From a virus (lineage: Duplodnaviria; Heunggongvirae; Uroviricota; Caudoviricetes): a DNA stretch of 64,000 bases. The DNA lies in IMG/VR virus record IMGVR_UViG_3300015608_002795, positions 1 to 64,000 of that record; one strand, 5' to 3'. This document shows positions 5,508 to 46,902 of this stretch, piece after piece. The notes beneath the pieces were generated by a model. The model was not told where the DNA came from. It worked only from the letters and a program-made list of their open reading frames with translations, and ran no database searches. The position numbers and the translations under genes were made by a program. Each line of letters opens with the position of its first letter. The first letter of the stretch is position 1.

Positions 5508-5580
5508 GGTTCCATCGTCCAACTGGATAGGACATGACCCTGCGAAGGTTAAGATATGAGTTCGAATCTCATTGGGACTT
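5508..5580 (+). tRNA. tRNA-Arg (GCG?)
   Basis: acceptor GGTTCCA/TGGGACT; D-stem GTCC/GGAC; anticodon loop CTGCGAA; T-arm ATGAG-TTCGAAT-CTCAT. Confidence 0.55.
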
Positions 5581-5586
5581 CAAATT

Positions 5587-19152: not shown

Positions 19153-19228
19153 GCTGCCGTCGACTAGTGGTTTATGTCGCAAGACTTTCAATCTTGTGAG
19201 CCGAAGGGCTCTCGCGGGTTCGAATCCC
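19153..19228 (+). tRNA. tRNA, class-II architecture (variable arm GAGCC/GGCTC), anticodon loop CTTTCAA (UUC), A73, 3-bp D-stem
   Basis: acceptor GCTGCCG/CGGCAGT; anticodon stem CAAGA/TCTTG perfect; T-arm GCGGG-TTCGAAT-CCCGT. Confidence 0.55.
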
Positions 19229-19412
19229 GTCGGCAGTACAAAAGTAGTTATCAAAATATCCATTCGGTCAATGGTGACAGGCAATAGACCCTGATACTCC
19301 ATAATGAACGAGTAAAGCTACCTCAAAAGACGTTTTGAGACGCATCGCTTCCGATAGATAACTCACAAGTACTATTATATCATCCATTATGGGGTTTTGG
19401 GTACTTAAATTG

Positions 19413-21686: not shown

Positions 21687-21767
21687 CGATTTCGGCGGGT
21701 ATCGAGCCAAGCTTATACCTTGGATATTCGTAGCGGGAAATGGAAGACGTGGGTTCGAATCCCACCC
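21682..21767 (+). tRNA. tRNA (candidate UAU anticodon hairpin CCAAG-CTTATAC-CTTGG); D region irregular
   Basis: acceptor CGGCGGG/CCCGCCG perfect; T-arm GTGGG-TTCGAAT-CCCAC. Confidence 0.4.
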
Positions 21768-21791
21768 CGCCGACAAAAATAATTTTTAGAA

Positions 21792-22277
21792 ATGAAAATT
21801 TGCACAAATTGTAATAAAGAGAAAAGTGTTAGTGAATTTTATTTTAAAAAGAATAGGAATTCTTATGAATCATCTTGTAAAAAATGTAGACAATTATCAG
21901 TTAAAAATTATTTAGAAAAAAATAACAATCTTAAAAAAATATTTTATACAAGAGTAAGAAATATTTTAAAAAGATCTAATGTAGTAGATATCGATTTAAG
22001 AAACTATCTAATACAATTATGGGAGGAACAAGAAGGAAAATGTTACTATACTGGTATTAAAATGTCTCTAAAGGGATATAGTAAAAATGAAAAAACAGCT
22101 ATGACTGTAGATAGAATTGATCCAAATGGTGGATATACTAGAGGTAATATAGTTCTATGTTGTTCAATTGTTAATAAAATTAAACAAAACTTATCAATTA
22201 ATGAATTATTAGAATGGTGTAATTTAATAAAAATATCAAGCGAGTATCGTATAATGGAAGCGAAAGCTATATTATAG
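21792..22277 (+). CDS. HNH endonuclease
   Basis: 'CTNCNKEKS..SCKKCR' Zn ribbon; 'GKCYYTGIKM..VDRIDPNGGYTRGNIVLCCSIVNKIK' HNH core. Confidence 0.7.
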   Translation: MKICTNCNKEKSVSEFYFKKNRNSYESSCKKCRQLSVKNYLEKNNNLKKIFYTRVRNILKRSNVVDIDLRNYLIQLWEEQEGKCYYTGIKMSLKGYSKNEKTAMTVDRIDPNGGYTRGNIVLCCSIVNKIKQNLSINELLEWCNLIKISSEYRIMEAKAIL

Positions 22278-22339
22278 GTGCCTTCCAAGCATCGGATGTC
22301 GGTTCGATTCCGACTATTCGCTCAAAAAATAAAGTAAAA

Positions 22340-22695: not shown

Positions 22696-22769
22696 GCGGG
22701 TGACGCATAAATGATGGTGCACCAGATTGCCATTCTGGAACAGAGCCGGTTTGATCCCGGTCACCCGCA
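22696..22769 (+). tRNA. tRNA-Gly (GCC)
   Basis: acceptor GCGGGTG/CACCCGC perfect; anticodon stem CCAGA/TCTGG with loop TTGCCAT; T-arm GCCGG-TTTGATC-CCGGT. Confidence 0.65.
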
Positions 22770-22818
22770 CAACCGAAAATAGGGAAACGCTCATAATTAA
22801 TATATAAAAATAAAAATT

Positions 22819-23463
22819 ATGAGATGGTCCCAATTAGAAGTAGAAAATATTATAGAATTAATTAAATGTGGAAAAAGCTATAAAGAAATATCAAGTATTG
22901 TAAATAGAACAGAGTCTAGTATAAGAAACAAAGCAAATGAAATTCAAATTATAACTTCACAATATTATCAAGTTAAAATTGTTAATAAATCTTGCTTAGA
23001 GTGTTCTTCAACTTTTGATTCTTTAGAGTATGAAAATAGAAAATTTTGCTCAAAATCTTGTAGCATAAAACACAATAATAGGTTAAGAAAAAAAAGTAAA
23101 TTTTGTTATAATTGTAAAAATATTTTATCAATAAGACAAAAAAAATTTTGTTGTAGGGAATGTAATAATTCATACAACAAGAATAAAATTTTTGAAAGAA
23201 TATCAAATGGCGACACATCAATATACTTTCAACAATATAAAAAATATTTAATTGAAAAATATGGTGAAAAATGTATGAAATGTGGATGGTCTGAAAGAAA
23301 TCCAATAACAAAAAAAGTTCCTATACAAATGGAACATATAGATGGAAATTCAGAAAATAACAGTATAGAAAATTTAGAATTATTATGTCCAAATTGTCAC
23401 TCATTAACACCAACATTTGGGGCCTTAAATAAAGGCAGAGGAAGAAAAAATAGAAAAAGATAA
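22819..23463 (+). CDS. HNH homing endonuclease (N-terminal HTH, Cys-rich middle, C-terminal HNH)
   Basis: 'MEHIDGNSENNSIENLELLCPNCHSLTPTFG'; paralogue of 32586-33254. Confidence 0.8.
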   Translation: MRWSQLEVENIIELIKCGKSYKEISSIVNRTESSIRNKANEIQIITSQYYQVKIVNKSCLECSSTFDSLEYENRKFCSKSCSIKHNNRLRKKSKFCYNCKNILSIRQKKFCCRECNNSYNKNKIFERISNGDTSIYFQQYKKYLIEKYGEKCMKCGWSERNPITKKVPIQMEHIDGNSENNSIENLELLCPNCHSLTPTFGALNKGRGRKNRKR

Positions 23464-23544
23464 ACCAGGAGAGTAAATCCTATACTGAGAATGTTCCGGG
23501 TGTGGTTGCCTAGTTCGATGGTGTAAGTGTAGGGATCTCCATTT

Positions 23545-23610
23545 GGGGGATTAGCTCAGTTGGCTAGAGCACCTGCCTTGGGTCATCGGTTCGAATCCGA
23601 TATCCTCCAC
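23545..23610 (+). tRNA. truncated tRNA-Pro(UGG)-like gene (3' half of anticodon stem and variable loop missing)
   Basis: GGGGGAT-TA-GCTC-AGTTGGCTA-GAGC-A-CCTGC-CTTGGGT then directly T-arm CATCGG-TTCGAAT-CCGAT and ATCCTCC; 63 nt instead of about 73. Confidence 0.4.
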
Positions 23611-24486
23611 TATGAAAGGAGAAATCATGCGGGACGCATAAACGTCACAGAGGAGTATAAATCTTTCTGTGACTCAAAAGGAATCAAATTCCAAATGGAT
23701 GATAATGTAAAATCCTATGATGATACAACACTATTTTGTCCAGCTGGAATGCAACAGTTTAAGTCTAAGTTTAAAGACTTAAGCTACAAAGGAACAATAT
23801 CAAATATTCAATCTTGTTTAAGGTTGAATGATATAGAAGAAATTGGTGACGGAACACATTTACTCTACTTTAACATGATTGGACTTTTTTCATTCAGAGA
23901 GTTGAGTCTATCAGAAACAATTGATTTTTGGATAGAATTTTTAAATAAAATAGGAATAATTCCTGACTATGTAACAATCCATCCTAATAAATTAAATTGG
24001 GGAGAGTGGTATAAAAAACATAATGTAGAAATAAGAATAGACGAGGAATGTAAATGGACAGATGGTGAAATAGGTGGTTACTGTACTGAGTTTTATAAGA
24101 ATGGTATTGAAATAGGAAATATTGTAAATACCATGGATAATTGTATAGATGTTGGATTTGGATTGGAAAGAATTGAAATGGTATTAAATGGTAAAGGAAA
24201 ATCTAAAGAGGAAACCCTTACACAAACAATACTTAAAATAATTGAAAGTGGATTTAAGCCAACATACAATAAACAAGGTTCTTTATTGCGTAGGTTATTG
24301 AGGATATGTTATTTACAAAATATTGAAATTAATCATCAATATTATTTGGATGAAATAAAAAGGCAGGAAAGGATATTAGAAAAGTGGAATAGGTTAAAGG
24401 ATAAGCATAAAGACAAGTCAAAAGATTGGTGGTGGAATACACATGGAATTGACATAAATCAAATAGAAGATGGAGACATTATATAA
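23560..24486 (+). CDS. alanyl-tRNA synthetase catalytic (aminoacylation) domain only, ~300 aa; start codon unclear
   Basis: 'TTLFCPAGMQQFK', 'RLNDIEEIGDGTHLLYFNMIGLFSF', 'DGEIGGYCTEFY' and 'IDVGFGLERIEMVL' align with AlaRS motifs; no editing or C-Ala domain; the only in-frame ATG lies inside the truncated tRNA. Confidence 0.65.
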   Translation: MARAPALGHRFESDILHYERRNHAGRINVTEEYKSFCDSKGIKFQMDDNVKSYDDTTLFCPAGMQQFKSKFKDLSYKGTISNIQSCLRLNDIEEIGDGTHLLYFNMIGLFSFRELSLSETIDFWIEFLNKIGIIPDYVTIHPNKLNWGEWYKKHNVEIRIDEECKWTDGEIGGYCTEFYKNGIEIGNIVNTMDNCIDVGFGLERIEMVLNGKGKSKEETLTQTILKIIESGFKPTYNKQGSLLRRLLRICYLQNIEINHQYYLDEIKRQERILEKWNRLKDKHKDKSKDWWWNTHGIDINQIEDGDII

Positions 24487-25190
24487 TATAAATAGTTTAG
24501 TTTTTTGGGAAGAAAAAGATATTAGAATAAGAAGATTTATTGAAGATTCGATCAAAGAAGAAATGAAATCTATTCTTCTTTCTCAAAATTCAGCGTGGAA
24601 ATTTTATCAAATTGAAGCACCTTGTTTGATTCCAATTGATTTAATCAATCCGAATTATACGAGTGAAGATATATGGATTCAAGAGGATAAGGAGTTAGTT
24701 TTAAAACCAGAGACTACACCAAGTTCTTACGTATATGCTCAACACCTACTTAATTCTAATAGATGCTTACCACCACTTGTGGTTTGGCAAACATCTAAAT
24801 CATTTAGAAGAGAGCAAGATCAGGTTCTTAAAAACATGAGACTGAAGGAGTTTTATCAACAAGAGTTTCAATGTATATATGCTTCTGATACTTTGAATGA
24901 CTATCAGGAAAAGGTATTAGAACCTTCTAATTGCTTTGCCAGCAAGAATTGTTGAAAGTGATAGATTACCCTCTTATAGTTTAAGAACGATGGATATTGA
25001 AGTTTTTAATGATGATAAATGGATGGAAGTTTGTTCAATATCGAAGAGGACAGATTTTCCACAAAAAGCTAGAATTCATGTAAAAGATAGAGTTATAGAA
25101 AAAGACTTATTAGTACTTGAAATAGCTTTAGGTTCGGATAGGTTATTGTATAATTATTTGGAGAGAACAAAAAAAAGTCGTATATTGTAA
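24470..25190 (+). pseudogene. class-II aaRS-like catalytic core interrupted by a frameshift (ORFs 24470-24955 and 24936-25190)
   Basis: 'LKPETTPSSY..LPPLVVWQTSKSFRREQDQVLKNMRLKEFYQQEF' resembles class-II motif 2; the downstream frame carries the motif-3-like 'EIALGSDRLLY'. Confidence 0.45.
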
Positions 25191-25191
25191 T

Positions 25192-25419
25192 ATGAAATTA
25201 TACAAGGTAACATTTGACGACGGTGGGTGGCACACCAATTTACCAAGTTACACTATTGTAGCAGAAAGTAAAGAAGATGCTATGAAAAAAGCAAGAGAAG
25301 ACACTCACTATAATCAGTGGGACTGTTGGGCTTATGAGTTTAAAATTGAAGGATATGTAATCGAGGTGTATGATGAAAAGTCATATAACCGCGATAAAAA
25401 AATTAAAGAAGTATTATGA
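25192..25419 (+). CDS. hypothetical protein (75 aa)
   Basis: intact ORF. Confidence 0.4.
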   Translation: MKLYKVTFDDGGWHTNLPSYTIVAESKEDAMKKAREDTHYNQWDCWAYEFKIEGYVIEVYDEKSYNRDKKIKEVL

Positions 25420-25637
25420 ACAAGAATGAACTTAAAAAATTTTTATATTTGAATAAACCAGTCGCTGTTTTTCAATATATGAGAAAAGGATCAGCTTATT
25501 ACAAATCAGTAGTTGGTGATGTTGAATTAATTTACAACATTCCATTTGAGGACATGGCAGGAGATGCAGATTTTCTACCAGAAATGGAGGGTAAATTTTT
25601 AGCAAGGTGGGTTGATGAAAGTTTAAGCACTACTTAA
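25416..25637 (+). CDS. hypothetical protein (73 aa)
   Basis: coupled ORF. Confidence 0.4.
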   Translation: MNKNELKKFLYLNKPVAVFQYMRKGSAYYKSVVGDVELIYNIPFEDMAGDADFLPEMEGKFLARWVDESLSTT

Positions 25638-25648
25638 TAAATAAAAAA

Positions 25649-25721
25649 GCGGAAGTAGCTCATTTGGTAGAGCACCGTCCTTCCAAGTCGGGGGTGGCCG
25701 GTTCGAGCCCGGTCTTCCGCT
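25649..25721 (+). tRNA. tRNA-Gly (UCC)
   Basis: acceptor GCGGAAG/CTTCCGC perfect; anticodon stem CCGTC/GTCGG with loop CTTCCAA; T-arm GCCGG-TTCGAGC-CCGGT. Confidence 0.65.
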
Positions 25722-25844: not shown

Positions 25845-26564
25845 GTGATATTACAAGATATATCCAATTTAAAAGTCGTTGATGTAGTTGATGTTATTTG
25901 TGATAATTGTAATCTACAATTCACAAGAACTTTAAAAAATATTAAATCATTTCGCCCAAAGTGGGATGGTAAAGATATTTGTAGAAACTGCTCTTTTATT
26001 TTGTCTGCACATAAAAAGCCACAGTGTAATAAGGAATATTGGAAGGACTCAAATGTTAAATCTAAGCACGGATTATCTATTAAATCAAGTGATATTTATT
26101 ATGAGTCTATAAAAAATAGACCAAGTATATGTGGAAAAGACAATCCAATGTATGGTAAAAAAATGTCAGATACTACTAAAAGTAAAATGTCACTTGCTAG
26201 AACAGGTAAAATAGGTGAGAATGCTACGGCTTGGAAAGGTGGTAAAGTTTCTATCACCAGACTGGTAAAAGGATTTCAAAATAGAAATGGTTGGTATAAA
26301 AAAATATATGAGAGAGATGGATTTAAATGTGTTTATTGTGGTTCTAAAGATAAAATAGAAGCTCATCATAAGATTCCGATTAAAAATATCATAGATTTAC
26401 ACAAGCTCGAATTTAATAATAATGAAGATTTATATAAATTTTTAATATCCTTGGATATAATATTAGACTCTAATTTAGAAAATGGTATTACTTTATGCAG
26501 AGAGTGTCATAAAAAAGAACATATTAATTTTGGTAGTCGCTACCCAATTGTTAAACACCAGTAA
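25845..26564 (+). CDS. HNH homing endonuclease with NUMOD3 repeats
   Basis: 'CGKDNPMYGKKMSDTTKSKMSLARTGK' and 'CVYCGSKDKIEAHHKIP..NGITLCRECHKKEH'; start flanked by a perfect 15-bp inverted repeat. Confidence 0.75.
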   Translation: MILQDISNLKVVDVVDVICDNCNLQFTRTLKNIKSFRPKWDGKDICRNCSFILSAHKKPQCNKEYWKDSNVKSKHGLSIKSSDIYYESIKNRPSICGKDNPMYGKKMSDTTKSKMSLARTGKIGENATAWKGGKVSITRLVKGFQNRNGWYKKIYERDGFKCVYCGSKDKIEAHHKIPIKNIIDLHKLEFNNNEDLYKFLISLDIILDSNLENGITLCRECHKKEHINFGSRYPIVKHQ

Positions 26565-31445: not shown

Positions 31446-31526
31446 CGGCGTGTAACCCTCAATCCTGATAAGATTGCTACGGGTAATTGGTAAGTGAAAA
31501 TGCTGGTTCGATTCCAGTCACGCCGA
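31446..31526 (+). tRNA. tRNA-like, D-arm apparently absent, GAU-type hairpin CAATC-CTGATAA-GATTG
   Basis: acceptor CGGCGTG/CACGCCG perfect; T-arm GCTGG-TTCGATT-CCAGT. Confidence 0.35.
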
Positions 31527-31532
31527 CAAATT

Positions 31533-31618
31533 GGGAGATTAGCTCAGCTGGTCAGAGCAAGATCCTGTTAAGATCGAGGCGTGAATAACGATTTCATAGG
31601 TTCGAATCCTATCTCCCG
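31533..31618 (+). tRNA. tRNA, class-II architecture, anticodon loop CTGTTAA (GUU), G73
   Basis: acceptor GGGAGAT/ATCTCCC perfect; D-arm GCTC-AGCTGGTCA-GAGC; 19-nt variable arm (CGT/ACG stem); T-arm ATAGG-TTCGAAT-CCTAT. Confidence 0.5.
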
Positions 31619-31661
31619 CTTATTGAGTGATTTTCGAAAATTATATTTTAATATATAATTT

Positions 31662-32315
31662 ATGGAATCAAAATATATTTGTGAAGAATGTGGTAATGAA
31701 TTTTTTCCATTAAAAAGGAATGTTCAATACTCAAAGCTGAAAGGATTAAATAGAATAAGATTTTGTTCTAAACAATGCTCCGGTAGAAATTCTAAAAAAG
31801 AAATATTACTAGAGTGTGCAAATTGTGGGAAACAAGTCTATAAAAAAAGAAAAGAGAGAAAAAAGAGTAAAAGTGGAAATATTTTTTGTGGTAAGAGCTG
31901 TTCAGCATCTTTTAATAACAGAAATAAGTCTACTGGAACAAGAAGAAGTAAGTTAGAGTTATGGATAGAGAAAGAATTGAAAAGTGAATATAAATTTGAA
32001 ATTATTTTTAATGGAAAAGAAATCATAAATAGTGAATTAGACATTTATATACCAAGCTTAAAATTAGCATTTGAGTTAAATGGTATATTTCACTATGAAC
32101 CTATTTATGGAGAAGAAAAACTTAAAAATATTAAAAATAATGATGATAGAAAATTTCAAGCCTGCTTAGAGAAAAATATAGAACTTTGCATAATAGATAC
32201 GTCAGGTTCTAAAAACTTTAAGTCAGAAAGAGACAAAAAATATTTTAACATCATTAGTAATATAATAAATGCACGGATGGTTCGAGTGGTTGAAGACACT
32301 AGTCTGCAAAACTAG
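31662..32315 (+). CDS. DUF559 / very-short-patch-repair-like endonuclease with N-terminal zinc ribbons (homing-endonuclease-like)
   Basis: 'CEECGNEF..CSKQCSG' and 'CANCGKQV..CGKSC' Zn ribbons; C-terminal 'IYIPSLKLAFELNG..EKNIELCIID' PD-(D/E)xK-like core; 3' end overlaps the next tRNA by about 45 nt. Confidence 0.5.
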   Translation: MESKYICEECGNEFFPLKRNVQYSKLKGLNRIRFCSKQCSGRNSKKEILLECANCGKQVYKKRKERKKSKSGNIFCGKSCSASFNNRNKSTGTRRSKLELWIEKELKSEYKFEIIFNGKEIINSELDIYIPSLKLAFELNGIFHYEPIYGEEKLKNIKNNDDRKFQACLEKNIELCIIDTSGSKNFKSERDKKYFNIISNIINARMVRVVEDTSLQN

Positions 32316-32357
32316 AAGCCGTAAGGTTCATCGTGAGTTCAAATCTCACTCCGTGCT
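32271..32357 (+). tRNA. tRNA with GCA (Cys) anticodon and 17-nt variable arm
   Basis: acceptor GCACGGA/TCCGTGC perfect; anticodon stem CTAGT/ACTAG with loop CTGCAAA; T-arm GTGAG-TTCAAAT-CTCAC. Confidence 0.55.
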
Positions 32358-32362
32358 CATAA

Positions 32363-32448
32363 TGTCTCGTAGCTCAGTGGTTTAAGAGCACCGCCCTTAC
32401 AAGGCGGAGGCGAATAGGATACCGTCAGTTCGATTCTGACCGAGACAA
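32363..32448 (+). tRNA. tRNA-Val (UAC) with 16-nt variable region
   Basis: acceptor TGTCTCG/CGAGACA perfect; anticodon stem CCGCC/GGCGG with loop CTTACAA; T-arm GTCAG-TTCGATT-CTGAC. Confidence 0.6.
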
Positions 32449-32456
32449 CAAAAAAT

Positions 32457-32541
32457 GCCTGGTTCGCATAGTGGACGATTGCACCTGCCTTGTAAGCAGG
32501 ATCTTAAAAAGGCGACGGGGGTTCGAATCCCTCACCAGGCT
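32457..32541 (+). tRNA. tRNA-Thr (UGU) with 16-nt variable region
   Basis: acceptor GCCTGGT/ACCAGGC perfect; anticodon stem CCTGC/GCAGG with loop CTTGTAA; T-arm GGGGG-TTCGAAT-CCCTC. Confidence 0.6.
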
Positions 32542-32585
32542 CAAAGTAGGAAGGCTCATATTTTTAATATATAAAAATAAAAACT

Positions 32586-33378: not shown

Positions 33379-33451
33379 GTGGGAGTAGCTCAGTTGGTAA
33401 GAGCACCTGCATCGAGGCAGGCGGTCGGTGGTTCAAGTCCATCCTCCCATA
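33379..33451 (+). tRNA. tRNA with 6-nt anticodon loop ATCGAG (Arg UCG-like, one nt short)
   Basis: acceptor GTGGGAG/CTCCCAT; canonical D-arm GCTC-AGTTGGTAA-GAGC; anticodon stem CCTGC/GCAGG perfect but loop only 6 nt; T-arm GGTGG-TTCAAGT-CCATC. Confidence 0.45.
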
Positions 33452-33495
33452 CAAATCTTTAGTCTGATCAACTATTGACTGGATGGTTCGAAACA
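33452..33495 (+). ncRNA. tRNA top-half minihelix (acceptor-like stem TGATCAA/TTGATTA + T-arm GGATG-GTTCGAAA-CATCC)
   Basis: about 43-nt element with a T-loop consensus and a 7-bp terminal stem but no D or anticodon arm. Confidence 0.3.
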
Positions 33496-45849: not shown

Positions 45850-45924
45850 CGAGAATGTGTTGTAAACCGGTTGCATACTTCCCCTGGAAGGAAGAGGAGT
45901 GGTTCGAATCCAACATTTTCGACA
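45850..45924 (+). tRNA. tRNA-like (UGG hairpin CTTCC-CCTGGAA-GGAAG), weak T-stem
   Basis: acceptor CGAGAAT/ATTTTCG (1 GU); T-loop TTCGAAT present. Confidence 0.3.
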
Positions 45925-46156: not shown

Positions 46157-46229
46157 GGTCGTTTAGGGGAGAGGTCGTCCCTGCCGGCATGTGGGCCGGA
46201 GAGCGGTGGTTCGAATCCATCAGCGACCG
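46157..46229 (+). tRNA. tRNA-His (GUG)-like with 6-nt anticodon loop ATGTGG and extra 5' G(-1)
   Basis: acceptor GGTCGTT/AGCGACC preceded by G; D-arm GGGG-AGAGGTCGT-CCCT; anticodon stem CCGGC/GCCGG perfect; T-arm GGTGG-TTCGAAT-CCATC. Confidence 0.5.
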
Positions 46230-46284
46230 CGATTCCCTGATGAAGGGACTAGTTAGACTTCTAAGGTTATCAAAAAGTCAGGAT

Positions 46285-46361: not shown

Positions 46362-46445
46362 GGTCCCGGCGCATAATGGCTGGTGCAGCGGATTGTCACT
46401 CCGTGGATTTAAAAACCGTAGTGGGTTCGATTCCCATCGGGACCG
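46362..46445 (+). tRNA. tRNA with GUC (Asp) anticodon and 16-nt variable region
   Basis: acceptor GGTCCCG/CGGGACC perfect; anticodon stem GCGGA/TCCGT with loop TTGTCAC; T-arm GTGGG-TTCGATT-CCCAT. Confidence 0.55.
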
Positions 46446-46452
46446 CAAATAA

Positions 46453-46817: not shown

Positions 46818-46899
46818 TGAGATGTAGCGTAATGGTAACGCATCCGCCTTTGAAGCGGTGGAAGAAATTCCCCTGTAGGTTCGACCCCTACCATCTCAA
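46818..46899 (+). tRNA. tRNA with UUG (Gln) anticodon and 15-nt variable arm (GGAA/TTCC)
   Basis: acceptor TGAGATG/CATCTCA perfect; D-arm GCG-TAATGGTAA-CGC; loop CTTTGAA; T-arm GTAGG-TTCGACC-CCTAC. Confidence 0.5.
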
Positions 46900-46902
46900 C
46901 AT

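Follow-up and report, generated by a model that had tools for sequence, protein, structure and literature searches.

The DNA analysed here is a stretch of 64,000 nucleotides (nt) from the virus record IMGVR_UViG_3300015608_002795 (Caudoviricetes), called the window throughout (label WIN). It carries on its plus strand a gene for a small protein related to alanyl-tRNA synthetase (AlaRS), and this gene has no start codon in the place where about half of its homologues have a plain ATG. The reading frame of the enzyme (f0) is open from a TTG at 23560 to 24486 and its earliest ATG lies at 23695, so that the ATG that a first-pass annotation of this DNA had placed at 23560 does not exist. Read from a CGC codon at 23635, which would be the first codon after the frameshift proposed below, the body of the mini-AlaRS-like protein extends to 24486, with its stop codon at 24484-24486. 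The product, of about 280 residues (282-283), comprises the AlaRS catalytic core only. A Pfam tRNA-synt_2c match (1.6e-17) covers just positions 23-139 of the 552 in the profile, and the protein aligns to residues 10-159 of A. aeolicus AlaRS (PDB 1riq), with a weaker stretch at motif 3 (residues 215-249). The class II AlaRS motifs (CLR, FxMxGxFSF and IDxGxGLER) are kept, as seen both in the 1riq alignment and in the invariant columns of the family alignment. Because the window protein scores 66.4 bits against the alaS equivalog model TIGR00344 (88 bits for the Rhizobium protein), whose cut-off is 457, we classify the predicted product as an AlaRS-related catalytic core of about 280 residues and not as a standard AlaRS. 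A database search returned 987 homologues of this protein. The only PHROGs family matched was one of unknown function, PADLOC gave no defence-system match, and megablast of positions 22800-25700 against cultured and deposited phages gave no match.

A short leader open reading frame (ORF) at 23612-23641, also on the plus strand, overlaps the beginning of the protein body in the +1 frame of f0 (the leader frame, f1), and passage from leader to enzyme is a net -1 change. It reads ATG AAA GGA GAA ATC ATG CGG GAC GCA TAA and encodes MKGEIMRDA*, which is the product made if no frameshift occurs. A second ATG in the same frame, at 23627, gives ATG CGG GAC GCA TAA, or MRDA*, and a Shine-Dalgarno (SD)-like AAAGGAG (23615-23621) stands 5 nt before it. 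The first-pass annotation had correctly described this SD-like element with its spacer and its four-codon ORF, and it was right that the mini-ORF is out of frame. It had overlooked, however, the extension to the ATG at 23612, which is the start kept in close relatives, and it had the direction reversed: the mini-ORF begins 1 nt after an f0 codon boundary, and it is the AlaRS frame that is -1 relative to the mini-ORF. The first leader ATG is retained together with AAAGGAGAAA in L075, L076, L077 and L156 (L numbers denote the homologous loci that we fetched), and in a modified form in L086, L100 and L159.

The leader contains a conserved 9-nt core, GCGGGACGC (23629-23637, plus strand), at which we propose the shift site G_GAC_GCA (23632-23638). 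In the leader frame the core reads CGG GAC GCA and in the enzyme frame GCG GGA CGC. In either frame it uses the rarest codons of this genome: among the long ORFs of the window, CGC and CGG each account for 3 of 523 Arg codons, and GAC makes up 14% of Asp codons. The core is thus held at the nucleotide level against the codon habit of the genome. No other site of this kind turned up when the window was scanned. The core also lies inside a 5-bp palindromic hairpin, AUGCG-GGA-CGCAU (23627-23639), which a terminator scan placed on the minus strand. We rejected this palindrome as a shared element of the family, as cassettes of the CTG type (CTG for CGG) do not form it.

The missing start codon as a family trait

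We fetched 211 homologous loci from IMG/VR, metagenomes, GTDB genomes and GenBank, and sorted them by position relative to the invariant FCPAGMQQFK anchor. An in-frame ATG lies 29-37 codons before the anchor in 101 of these loci, mostly at 32-33 codons (MNITEEY...). Another 90 loci, representing 79 distinct sequences, have no in-frame ATG at this canonical position and carry instead G_GAC, A_AAC or G_GTC followed by _GC in the +1 frame. Every start-less locus has a leader-frame start 1-11 codons before the core (ATG in 74, GTG in four and TTG in one of the 79 distinct cassettes). The arrangement expected of a frameshift cassette, a started upstream ORF overlapping a start-less ORF in the -1 frame, was thus found in the window and in 90 loci. 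An in-frame ATG and the core never occur together (0 loci with both). By chance, the core motif (GGAC, AAAC or GGTC, then GC) in the right phase would be expected in ~1.6% of loci (3/4^6 per position, 22 positions), and it was found in 90 loci and in none of the 101 with an ATG. Comparison of the homologues therefore identifies the missing start codon as a trait of the family and not as a local mutation. The first-pass annotation had suggested looking at the same junction in related phages, where a plain ATG would have pointed to a local mutation. A plain ATG does occur in about half of the homologues, but L075 and L077, which stand closest to the window (88-92% identical), share its start-less cassette letter for letter.

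An information matrix built from 28 distinct sequences gives G C K R R W C G C for positions -4 to +4. The positions that form CGC are invariant and the base that follows them is free (A 16, C 8, G 3, T 1), and positions -1 and 0 covary, being always equal (GG in 24 sequences, AA in four). All four GCN forms occur at the core, and Ala is the only in-frame sense codon that is always required. These nucleotides are conserved across lineages that range from 31% to ~58% GC and share only ~47-60% protein identity. In homologues that have an ATG start, this ATG lines up exactly with the ATA at 23638 of the window (MNITEEYKSYC versus INVTEEYKSFC). Between start-less genes, the ratio of nonsynonymous to synonymous substitution rates (dN/dS) was 0.09-0.17 in eight measurable pairs, values that indicate strong purifying selection on these coding sequences.

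The cassette is present in AT-rich phage contigs, among them GenBank LR745206.1, an uncultured huge phage of 634,780 bp; the huge-phage paper predicts that genomes above 634 kb infect Bacteroidetes and does not mention frameshifting. It is also found in ~45 genomes of Rhizobium, Phyllobacterium, Hoeflea, Caulobacteraceae and others, and on some 90 Rhizobium plasmids. On pRL9 of Rhizobium johnstonii 3841 (L211, 92660-93562) the gene is RL_RS26335, an 'alanine--tRNA ligase-related protein' (WP_028743334.1) annotated from an ATC in f0, and its SD-ATG is out of frame: AAGGAGGTTGCCT ATG TCA CCG CGG GAC GCC TGA. The gene neighbours on pRL9 are RES-Xre and PIN-Phd toxin-antitoxin pairs and an ABC transporter operon. 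In Rhizobium sp. P44RR-XXIV (L195) the cassette is accompanied by a further frame break downstream, and the copy has probably decayed or been misassembled. The deepest branches of a midpoint-rooted neighbour-joining tree (L066, L010 and L015) have the cassette, and a history with one origin and ~9 losses costs almost the same as eight unconstrained changes. Because repeated invention of the same core is unlikely, we infer that the cassette is ancestral and has repeatedly been replaced by a plain ATG. Throughout the start-less half of the family, current annotation is in error: the N-terminus is cut, the ORF is run through the tRNA gene or an ATC start is assigned.

From the leader frame to the enzyme frame

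Three features of the start-less loci delimit where the frame must change. In L078, L080 and LR745206.1, a stop closes the enzyme frame only 4-5 codons before the core, and in several loci the f0 codons between the upstream stop and the core are AAG, TAT, GAA, AGA, ACA and GTC only. The f0 frame that runs open across the tRNA gene upstream in the window is therefore incidental, and the first-pass annotation was wrong to let the gene start inside this tRNA. In 57 of the 79 distinct cassettes, including that of the window, a leader-frame stop directly follows the GCN codon. Finally, in L013, L010, L015, L094 and L104, the sole possible leader-frame start is a GTG immediately before GAC. Together, these constraints confine the change of frame to about NNG GAC GCN, and comparison of the loci thus places the net -1 passage from f1 to f0 inside the conserved core. 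A natural fusion gives indirect support for the joining of leader and enzyme. In L084/L085, ATG AAA ACT AAA GAA CAG TCG CTG GAC GCT TTA GTC ACA GAA GAA forms a single ORF, MKTKEQSLDALVTEEY, and the sister locus L080 has the same leader with two extra bases and the usual split between leader and enzyme. We also considered an f0-coding signal upstream of the core, as six differences between the window and L086 are all synonymous in f0. The addition of L156 and L159 weakened this candidate: with them, what is conserved upstream is a set of letters (GGAG, AA, GC, GG and CGC) rather than amino acids.

On this comparative evidence, we consider it likely that expression of the mini-AlaRS-like gene depends on a programmed -1 ribosomal frameshift near its 5' end. 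Ribosomes would initiate at the out-of-frame AUG at 23612, which relatives conserve, or at the AUG at 23627 in the same frame, decode a few codons and arrive at G_GAC_GCA. Normal decoding of GCA would bring them to the adjacent UAA stop, with release of a peptide of nine or four residues. Alternatively, the peptidyl-tRNA on GAC would slip back by one base to GGA, placing CGC (Arg) in the A site and leading into the enzyme frame, with MKGEIMRD-RINVTEEYK... as the predicted junction. For the R. johnstonii 3841 cassette the corresponding junction peptide would be MSPRD-R-LIQQYQDFCLSK. Across the family, a P-site tRNA on GAC, AAC or GUC would slip to GGA, AAA or GGU while GCN stands in the A site, and CGC would be read next. 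The slip route is probably P-site slippage at a slowly decoded Ala codon. In a sub-variant with the same logic, a non-cognate tRNA would read GCN out of register or as a doublet in competition with the cognate tRNA. Single-tRNA P-site slippage at X_XXN followed by a hungry codon is a documented pattern (PMC10861913), which A_AAC fits fully and G_GAC and G_GUC in part; non-cognate -1 shifting against which the cognate tRNA competes is documented as well (PMC5009743). A tRNA-Arg(GCG) encoded in the window (5508-5581) is the exact reader of CGC, the first codon after the proposed shift.

Two elements flank the shift site and would probably increase the slip frequency. Downstream, a hairpin at 23644-23673 (plus strand) has 10-bp arms at 23644-23653 (GTCACAGAGG) and 23664-23673 (TTTCTGTGAC) and a 10-nt loop, and begins 5 nt past the Ala codon GCA. 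Its minimum free energy in the window is -13.4 kcal/mol (z = -4.31), and none of 200 shuffled sequences was as stable. Across 14 AT-rich-clade sequences, 96.4% of the hairpin cells were paired, against 32-57% in slid controls. Four pairs change on both sides (GC/CG/AU, AU/GC and GC/AU), and none of 500 shuffles reached the covariation score. A structure 5-9 nt downstream with covariation, as expected of a stimulator, is hence present in the window and in the AT-rich clade. The mean fold z is -3.1 for start-less loci (n=33) and -0.55 for those of the ATG type (n=66), and in an ATG-type sister clade that encodes nearly the same peptide (L002, L088 and L091-L095) folds reach only 0 to -4 kcal/mol, with L002 and L088 at 0. 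This comparison shows that the hairpin is specific to the start-less genes of the AT-rich clade, where it is likely to act as a downstream frameshift stimulator.

Upstream, the GGAG of AAAGGAG ends 10 nt before the GGAC of the shift site. The same spacing, GGAG exactly 10 nt before GGAC or GGTC, is found in the window, L156, L086, L100 and L159, and GGAG stands 10-12 nt before GGAC or GGTC in the GTG-start loci L013, L015, L094 and L104. The element could be an upstream stimulator of the dnaX type, the SD sequence of the second ATG, or both.

Several observations weigh against a programmed -1 shift at this core. None of its forms (G_GAC_GCN, A_AAC_GCN and G_GTC_GCN) is a canonical X_XXY_YYZ heptamer, and slippage from GAC to GGA or from GUC to GGU costs one of the three pairs. 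A slippage model gives no reason for the conservation of GC at -4/-3. L155, which is 99.9% identical to the window over 1610 nt (23580-25189), has GAC ACA at the core, with Thr for Ala; this change, at the equivalent of 23636, is one of only two mismatches in that stretch. In most loci of the GC-rich Rhizobium clade no convincing structure was found at the right distance, L057, L122 and L058 being the exceptions. GGAG is absent from many loci, e.g. L003, L078, L080, L082, L087, L160 and L161, and ribosomes of Bacteroidetes, the predicted hosts of the AT-rich huge phages, make little use of SD pairing. The protein scores far under the alaS cut-off, and charging of tRNA-Ala by it is putative. 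Finally, according to the Atkins review, slow decoding in the A site is as a rule more important in +1 than in -1 shifting. For the GC-rich clade, an SD-sequestering helix predicted by RNAalifold was also tried and discarded: it is weak (-6 kcal/mol), and its pairs are all invariant or change on one side only.

We also considered a use for such a shift. Because the unshifted peptide of 4-13 residues appears useless and Ala is the one obligatory in-frame sense codon, the frameshift might be a sensor: when Ala-tRNA(Ala) is scarce, ribosomes would pause at the leader Ala codon and slip, and more of an alanine-activating enzyme would be made. The Arg-tRNA that reads the overlapping CGC would perhaps compete at the paused Ala codon. 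We offer this feedback as a tentative idea, one that we think may well prove wrong.

Among the other explanations, termination-reinitiation fares best and is still unlikely. Ribosomes would finish the leader and restart in the enzyme frame at a near-cognate codon overlapping the leader stop (ATAA in the window, CTGA in Rhizobium, TTGA in L056). The frequency with which a stop directly follows GCN is far above chance, and in those 57 cassettes the overlapping f0 codon is often ATA, CTG or TTG. In the remaining 22 of the 79 cassettes, however, the stop falls 1-7 codons further on, beyond the conserved N-terminal helix in L003, L004 and L060, and in other cassettes the overlapping codon is GTA, CTA or TTA. 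Reinitiation from the mini-ORF, which the first-pass annotation had held open, also leaves unexplained the invariant RRWCGC core, the covariation of positions -1 and 0, and the L084 fusion that retains the leader.

A backward hop of peptidyl-tRNA-Ala is very unlikely. The tRNA would re-pair 7 nt upstream on the f0 GCK with the stop codon in the A site, giving a product with ...D-A-G-R-..., and this would account for the conservation of GC at both -4/-3 and +3/+4 as well as for the frequent stop after GCN. The upstream GC is nevertheless absent from six of the 79 distinct cassettes (TGTGGACGC in four, CGTGGACGC and GTGGGACGC in one each), and in Rhizobium the take-off codon GCC and the landing codon GCG need different wobble pairing. 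Long backward hops are, moreover, rare events.

It is highly improbable that no recoding occurs, with f0 translated from a non-AUG codon (the RefSeq ATC of WP_028743334.1) or from the internal ATG at 23695 (gene call P0001) and the leader an unrelated upstream ORF. PGAP does annotate the Rhizobium gene from the ATC, and gene callers give products of 255-263 residues from MDDNV. Against a non-AUG start, no near-cognate f0 codon is conserved, f0 is closed shortly before the core in the loci named above, and the upstream f0 sequence is not conserved among Rhizobium. The AUA or AUC initiation near 23640 that the first-pass annotation had offered as an alternative finds no support either, since the codon there varies (ATA, ATT, AAT, CTA, TTG, GTA, ACT and others). 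As for an internal start, it would remove a conserved N-terminal helix: the stretch encoded between the core and the first internal Met shows conservation of its protein sequence and corresponds to AlaRS residues 10-30. The internal Met is, moreover, missing from many family members. Purifying selection, this conserved stretch and the often-absent Met together lead us to exclude both internal initiation and a pseudogene. The least credible explanation, that a local frameshift mutation or sequencing error destroyed the gene start, can draw on nearby lesions in this lineage (a 9-nt tRNA-Ala deletion, a 20-nt deletion in a GlyRS-like gene and the L155 core substitution), but 79 distinct sequences have the arrangement, among them complete genomes of cultured Rhizobium and a curated phage genome of 634,780 bp, with intact ORFs and dN/dS of ~0.1.

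The oddity noticed by the first-pass annotation is therefore real, and its guess at a shift from the mini-ORF is strongly supported, at the level of sequence comparison, by the conserved core, the covarying hairpin, the in-frame fusion and purifying selection. Its tRNA label, its start codon and the link that it drew to a tRNA truncation did not hold.

A tRNA-Ala remnant and other features of the window

Upstream of the leader, a 65-nt remnant of a tRNA-Ala(UGC) gene (23545-23609, plus strand) ends 2 nt before the ATG at 23612. It matches the Rfam tRNA model with 46.3 bits, its anticodon-arm region measuring 7 nt against 15 in the model, and ARAGORN does not call a tRNA at 23545-23609. The sequence is GGGGGAT TA GCTC AGTTGGCTA GAGC A CCTGC CTTGGGTC ATCGG TTCGAAT CCGAT ATCCTCC A, in which the acceptor stem (with G3:U70), the D arm and the T arm are all intact. 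L155, an independent JGI contig, has an intact tRNA-Ala(UGC) in the same place, 2 nt ahead of the ATG (...GCACTAGCTTTGCAAGCTAGGGGTCATCGG...). The window reads ...GCACCTGCCTT joined to GGGTCATCGG..., a tRNA-Ala(UGC) allele with the stem CCUGC minus 9 nt. The deleted bases, inferred to be GCAAGCAGG, comprise most of the anticodon, the rest of the anticodon loop and the 3' strand of the anticodon stem, and because this deletion destroyed the anticodon arm the remnant cannot decode. The first-pass annotation had taken the gene for a tRNA-Pro(UGG) lacking about 10 nt. The truncation is genuine and amounts to 9 nt. The G3:U70 pair and the L155 counterpart point to a tRNA-Ala, the 3' anticodon-stem strand that a tRNA-Pro(UGG) would need is missing, and the apparent UGG is the junction of the deletion. 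In 14 related loci, the tRNA gene directly upstream of the enzyme gene is likewise tRNA-Ala(UGC or GGC). The truncation is private to this genome and has nothing to do with how the enzyme gene is expressed. We also discarded the idea of a conserved 'anticodon-less tRNA' with a role in regulation or as a minihelix substrate, given the intact tRNA-Ala of L155 and the normal tRNA-Ala, or none, in relatives.

The 5' half of the window tRNA differs from L155 at several bases and the next 1.6 kb is almost identical. An ORF for an HNH endonuclease (22819-23463; HNH and Myb-like domains) lies between tRNA genes and is an insertion relative to L077, and it is plausible that the tRNA lesion arose by recombination around this insertion. 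A second ORF of this type (HNH/NUMOD3) is located at 25845-26564. Downstream of the mini-AlaRS-like gene, a class II glycyl-tRNA synthetase (GlyRS)-like gene (PF00587, 24470-25190) consists of two ORFs, as it does in L155, because 20 nt have been lost near 24926. We do not regard this split (24920-24955) as a second programmed shift, since L013, L078 and L081, without the deletion, have a single ORF.

Other tRNA genes of the window are unusual. The tRNAs at 33379-33452 and 46157-46230 have 6-nt anticodon loops, AUCGAG (Arg-like) and AUGUGG (His/Thr-like), for which ARAGORN reports two-base anticodons; that at 33379-33452 scores 56 bits with Rfam. Doublet decoding at the cassette by these two tRNAs (CG, GU) was considered and rejected: the cassettes share no in-frame codon beginning with CG or AC. 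The window also has eight tRNAs of 83-91 nt, with specificities for Lys, Glu, Asn, Cys, Val, Thr, Asp and Gln (2653-2743, 19153-19239, 31532-31619, 32271-32358, 32363-32449, 32457-32542, 46362-46446 and 46818-46900). In bacteria, a long extra arm is normally confined to Leu, Ser and Tyr tRNAs. The ARAGORN drawing gives the Lys(UUU) tRNA at 2653-2743 such an arm, and the other seven were judged by length only. Rfam also detected tRNA genes with unusual D-arm regions that ARAGORN missed, at 21693-21773, 22240-22322, 22696-22769, 31446-31526 and 45851-45921. Read from their loops, 22240-22322 is Gly(UCC) and 22696-22769 is Gly(GCC).

Comparison with known systems

The closest parallel in layout is prfB, the gene for release factor 2. 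In both, the first ORF is short and stops at the shift site or beside it, and production of the full-length protein depends on the shift; an SD-like element is found upstream (here in part of the family), and shifted and plain-ORF homologues coexist. In prfB, decoding of the A-site codon depends on the gene's own product, and the invariant Ala codon suggests that the same may hold here. The two differ in that prfB shifts +1 at CUU_UGA with its SD-like element 3 nt upstream, whereas the shift proposed here is -1 at G_GAC_GCN, with a downstream hairpin, and would sense charged tRNA-Ala indirectly in a hypothetical feedback. In the window, the order of an SD-like element ~10 nt upstream, a shift site and a hairpin 5-6 nt downstream resembles E. 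coli dnaX. The dnaX heptamer A_AAA_AAG permits tandem slippage and yields two useful products, unlike the tetramer-like X_XYC with an Ala codon and the unshifted peptide of 4-13 residues described here.

Hungry-codon slippage and the non-cognate -1 shifting known from MS2 (PMC10861913 and PMC5009743) are related in mechanism: A_AAC_GCN fits X_XXN plus an A-site codon, the cognate tRNA competes, and the shift rate reports the supply of one aminoacyl-tRNA. The cases in these sources are laboratory or error-level events, whereas the shift proposed here would be fixed by selection across a gene family and linked to a synthetase-like enzyme that matches the tRNA in question. As to the enzyme, the Tupanvirus mini-AlaRS (PMC10036535) is likewise a viral AlaRS without editing and C-Ala domains, but by the abstract of that report it keeps the tRNA-recognition domain and is related to host AlaRS; the proteins studied here, of ~280 residues and 66-88 bits against alaS, are uncharacterised and occur also on Rhizobium plasmids. 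Our literature search found no paper on this mini-AlaRS family or its frameshift, and the accessible portion of the 2016 frameshifting catalogue (PMC5009743) mentions no aminoacyl-tRNA synthetase gene. G_GAC_GCN thus appears to be an undescribed recoding signal, placed 3-13 codons from the start and assisted by clade-specific stimulators.

The same cassette is carried by pRL9 of the model strain R. johnstonii 3841, where it is experimentally accessible, and it is relevant to the way in which huge phages adjust the translation genes that they carry. Synthetase expression is coupled to the charging state or level of the cognate tRNA in pheST leader-peptide attenuation, in T-box riboswitches and at the thrS operator, and pheST does so with a short leader peptide rich in the cognate codon. 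These systems act on transcription termination or translation initiation and not on the choice of reading frame. If the leader Ala codon is indeed a sensor, it would couple expression to the charging of one tRNA in a simple and portable way and represent a new kind of synthetase feedback. The family would then provide the first natural synthetase-like gene governed by reading-frame choice at its cognate codon, one shared by huge phages and Rhizobium plasmids alike.

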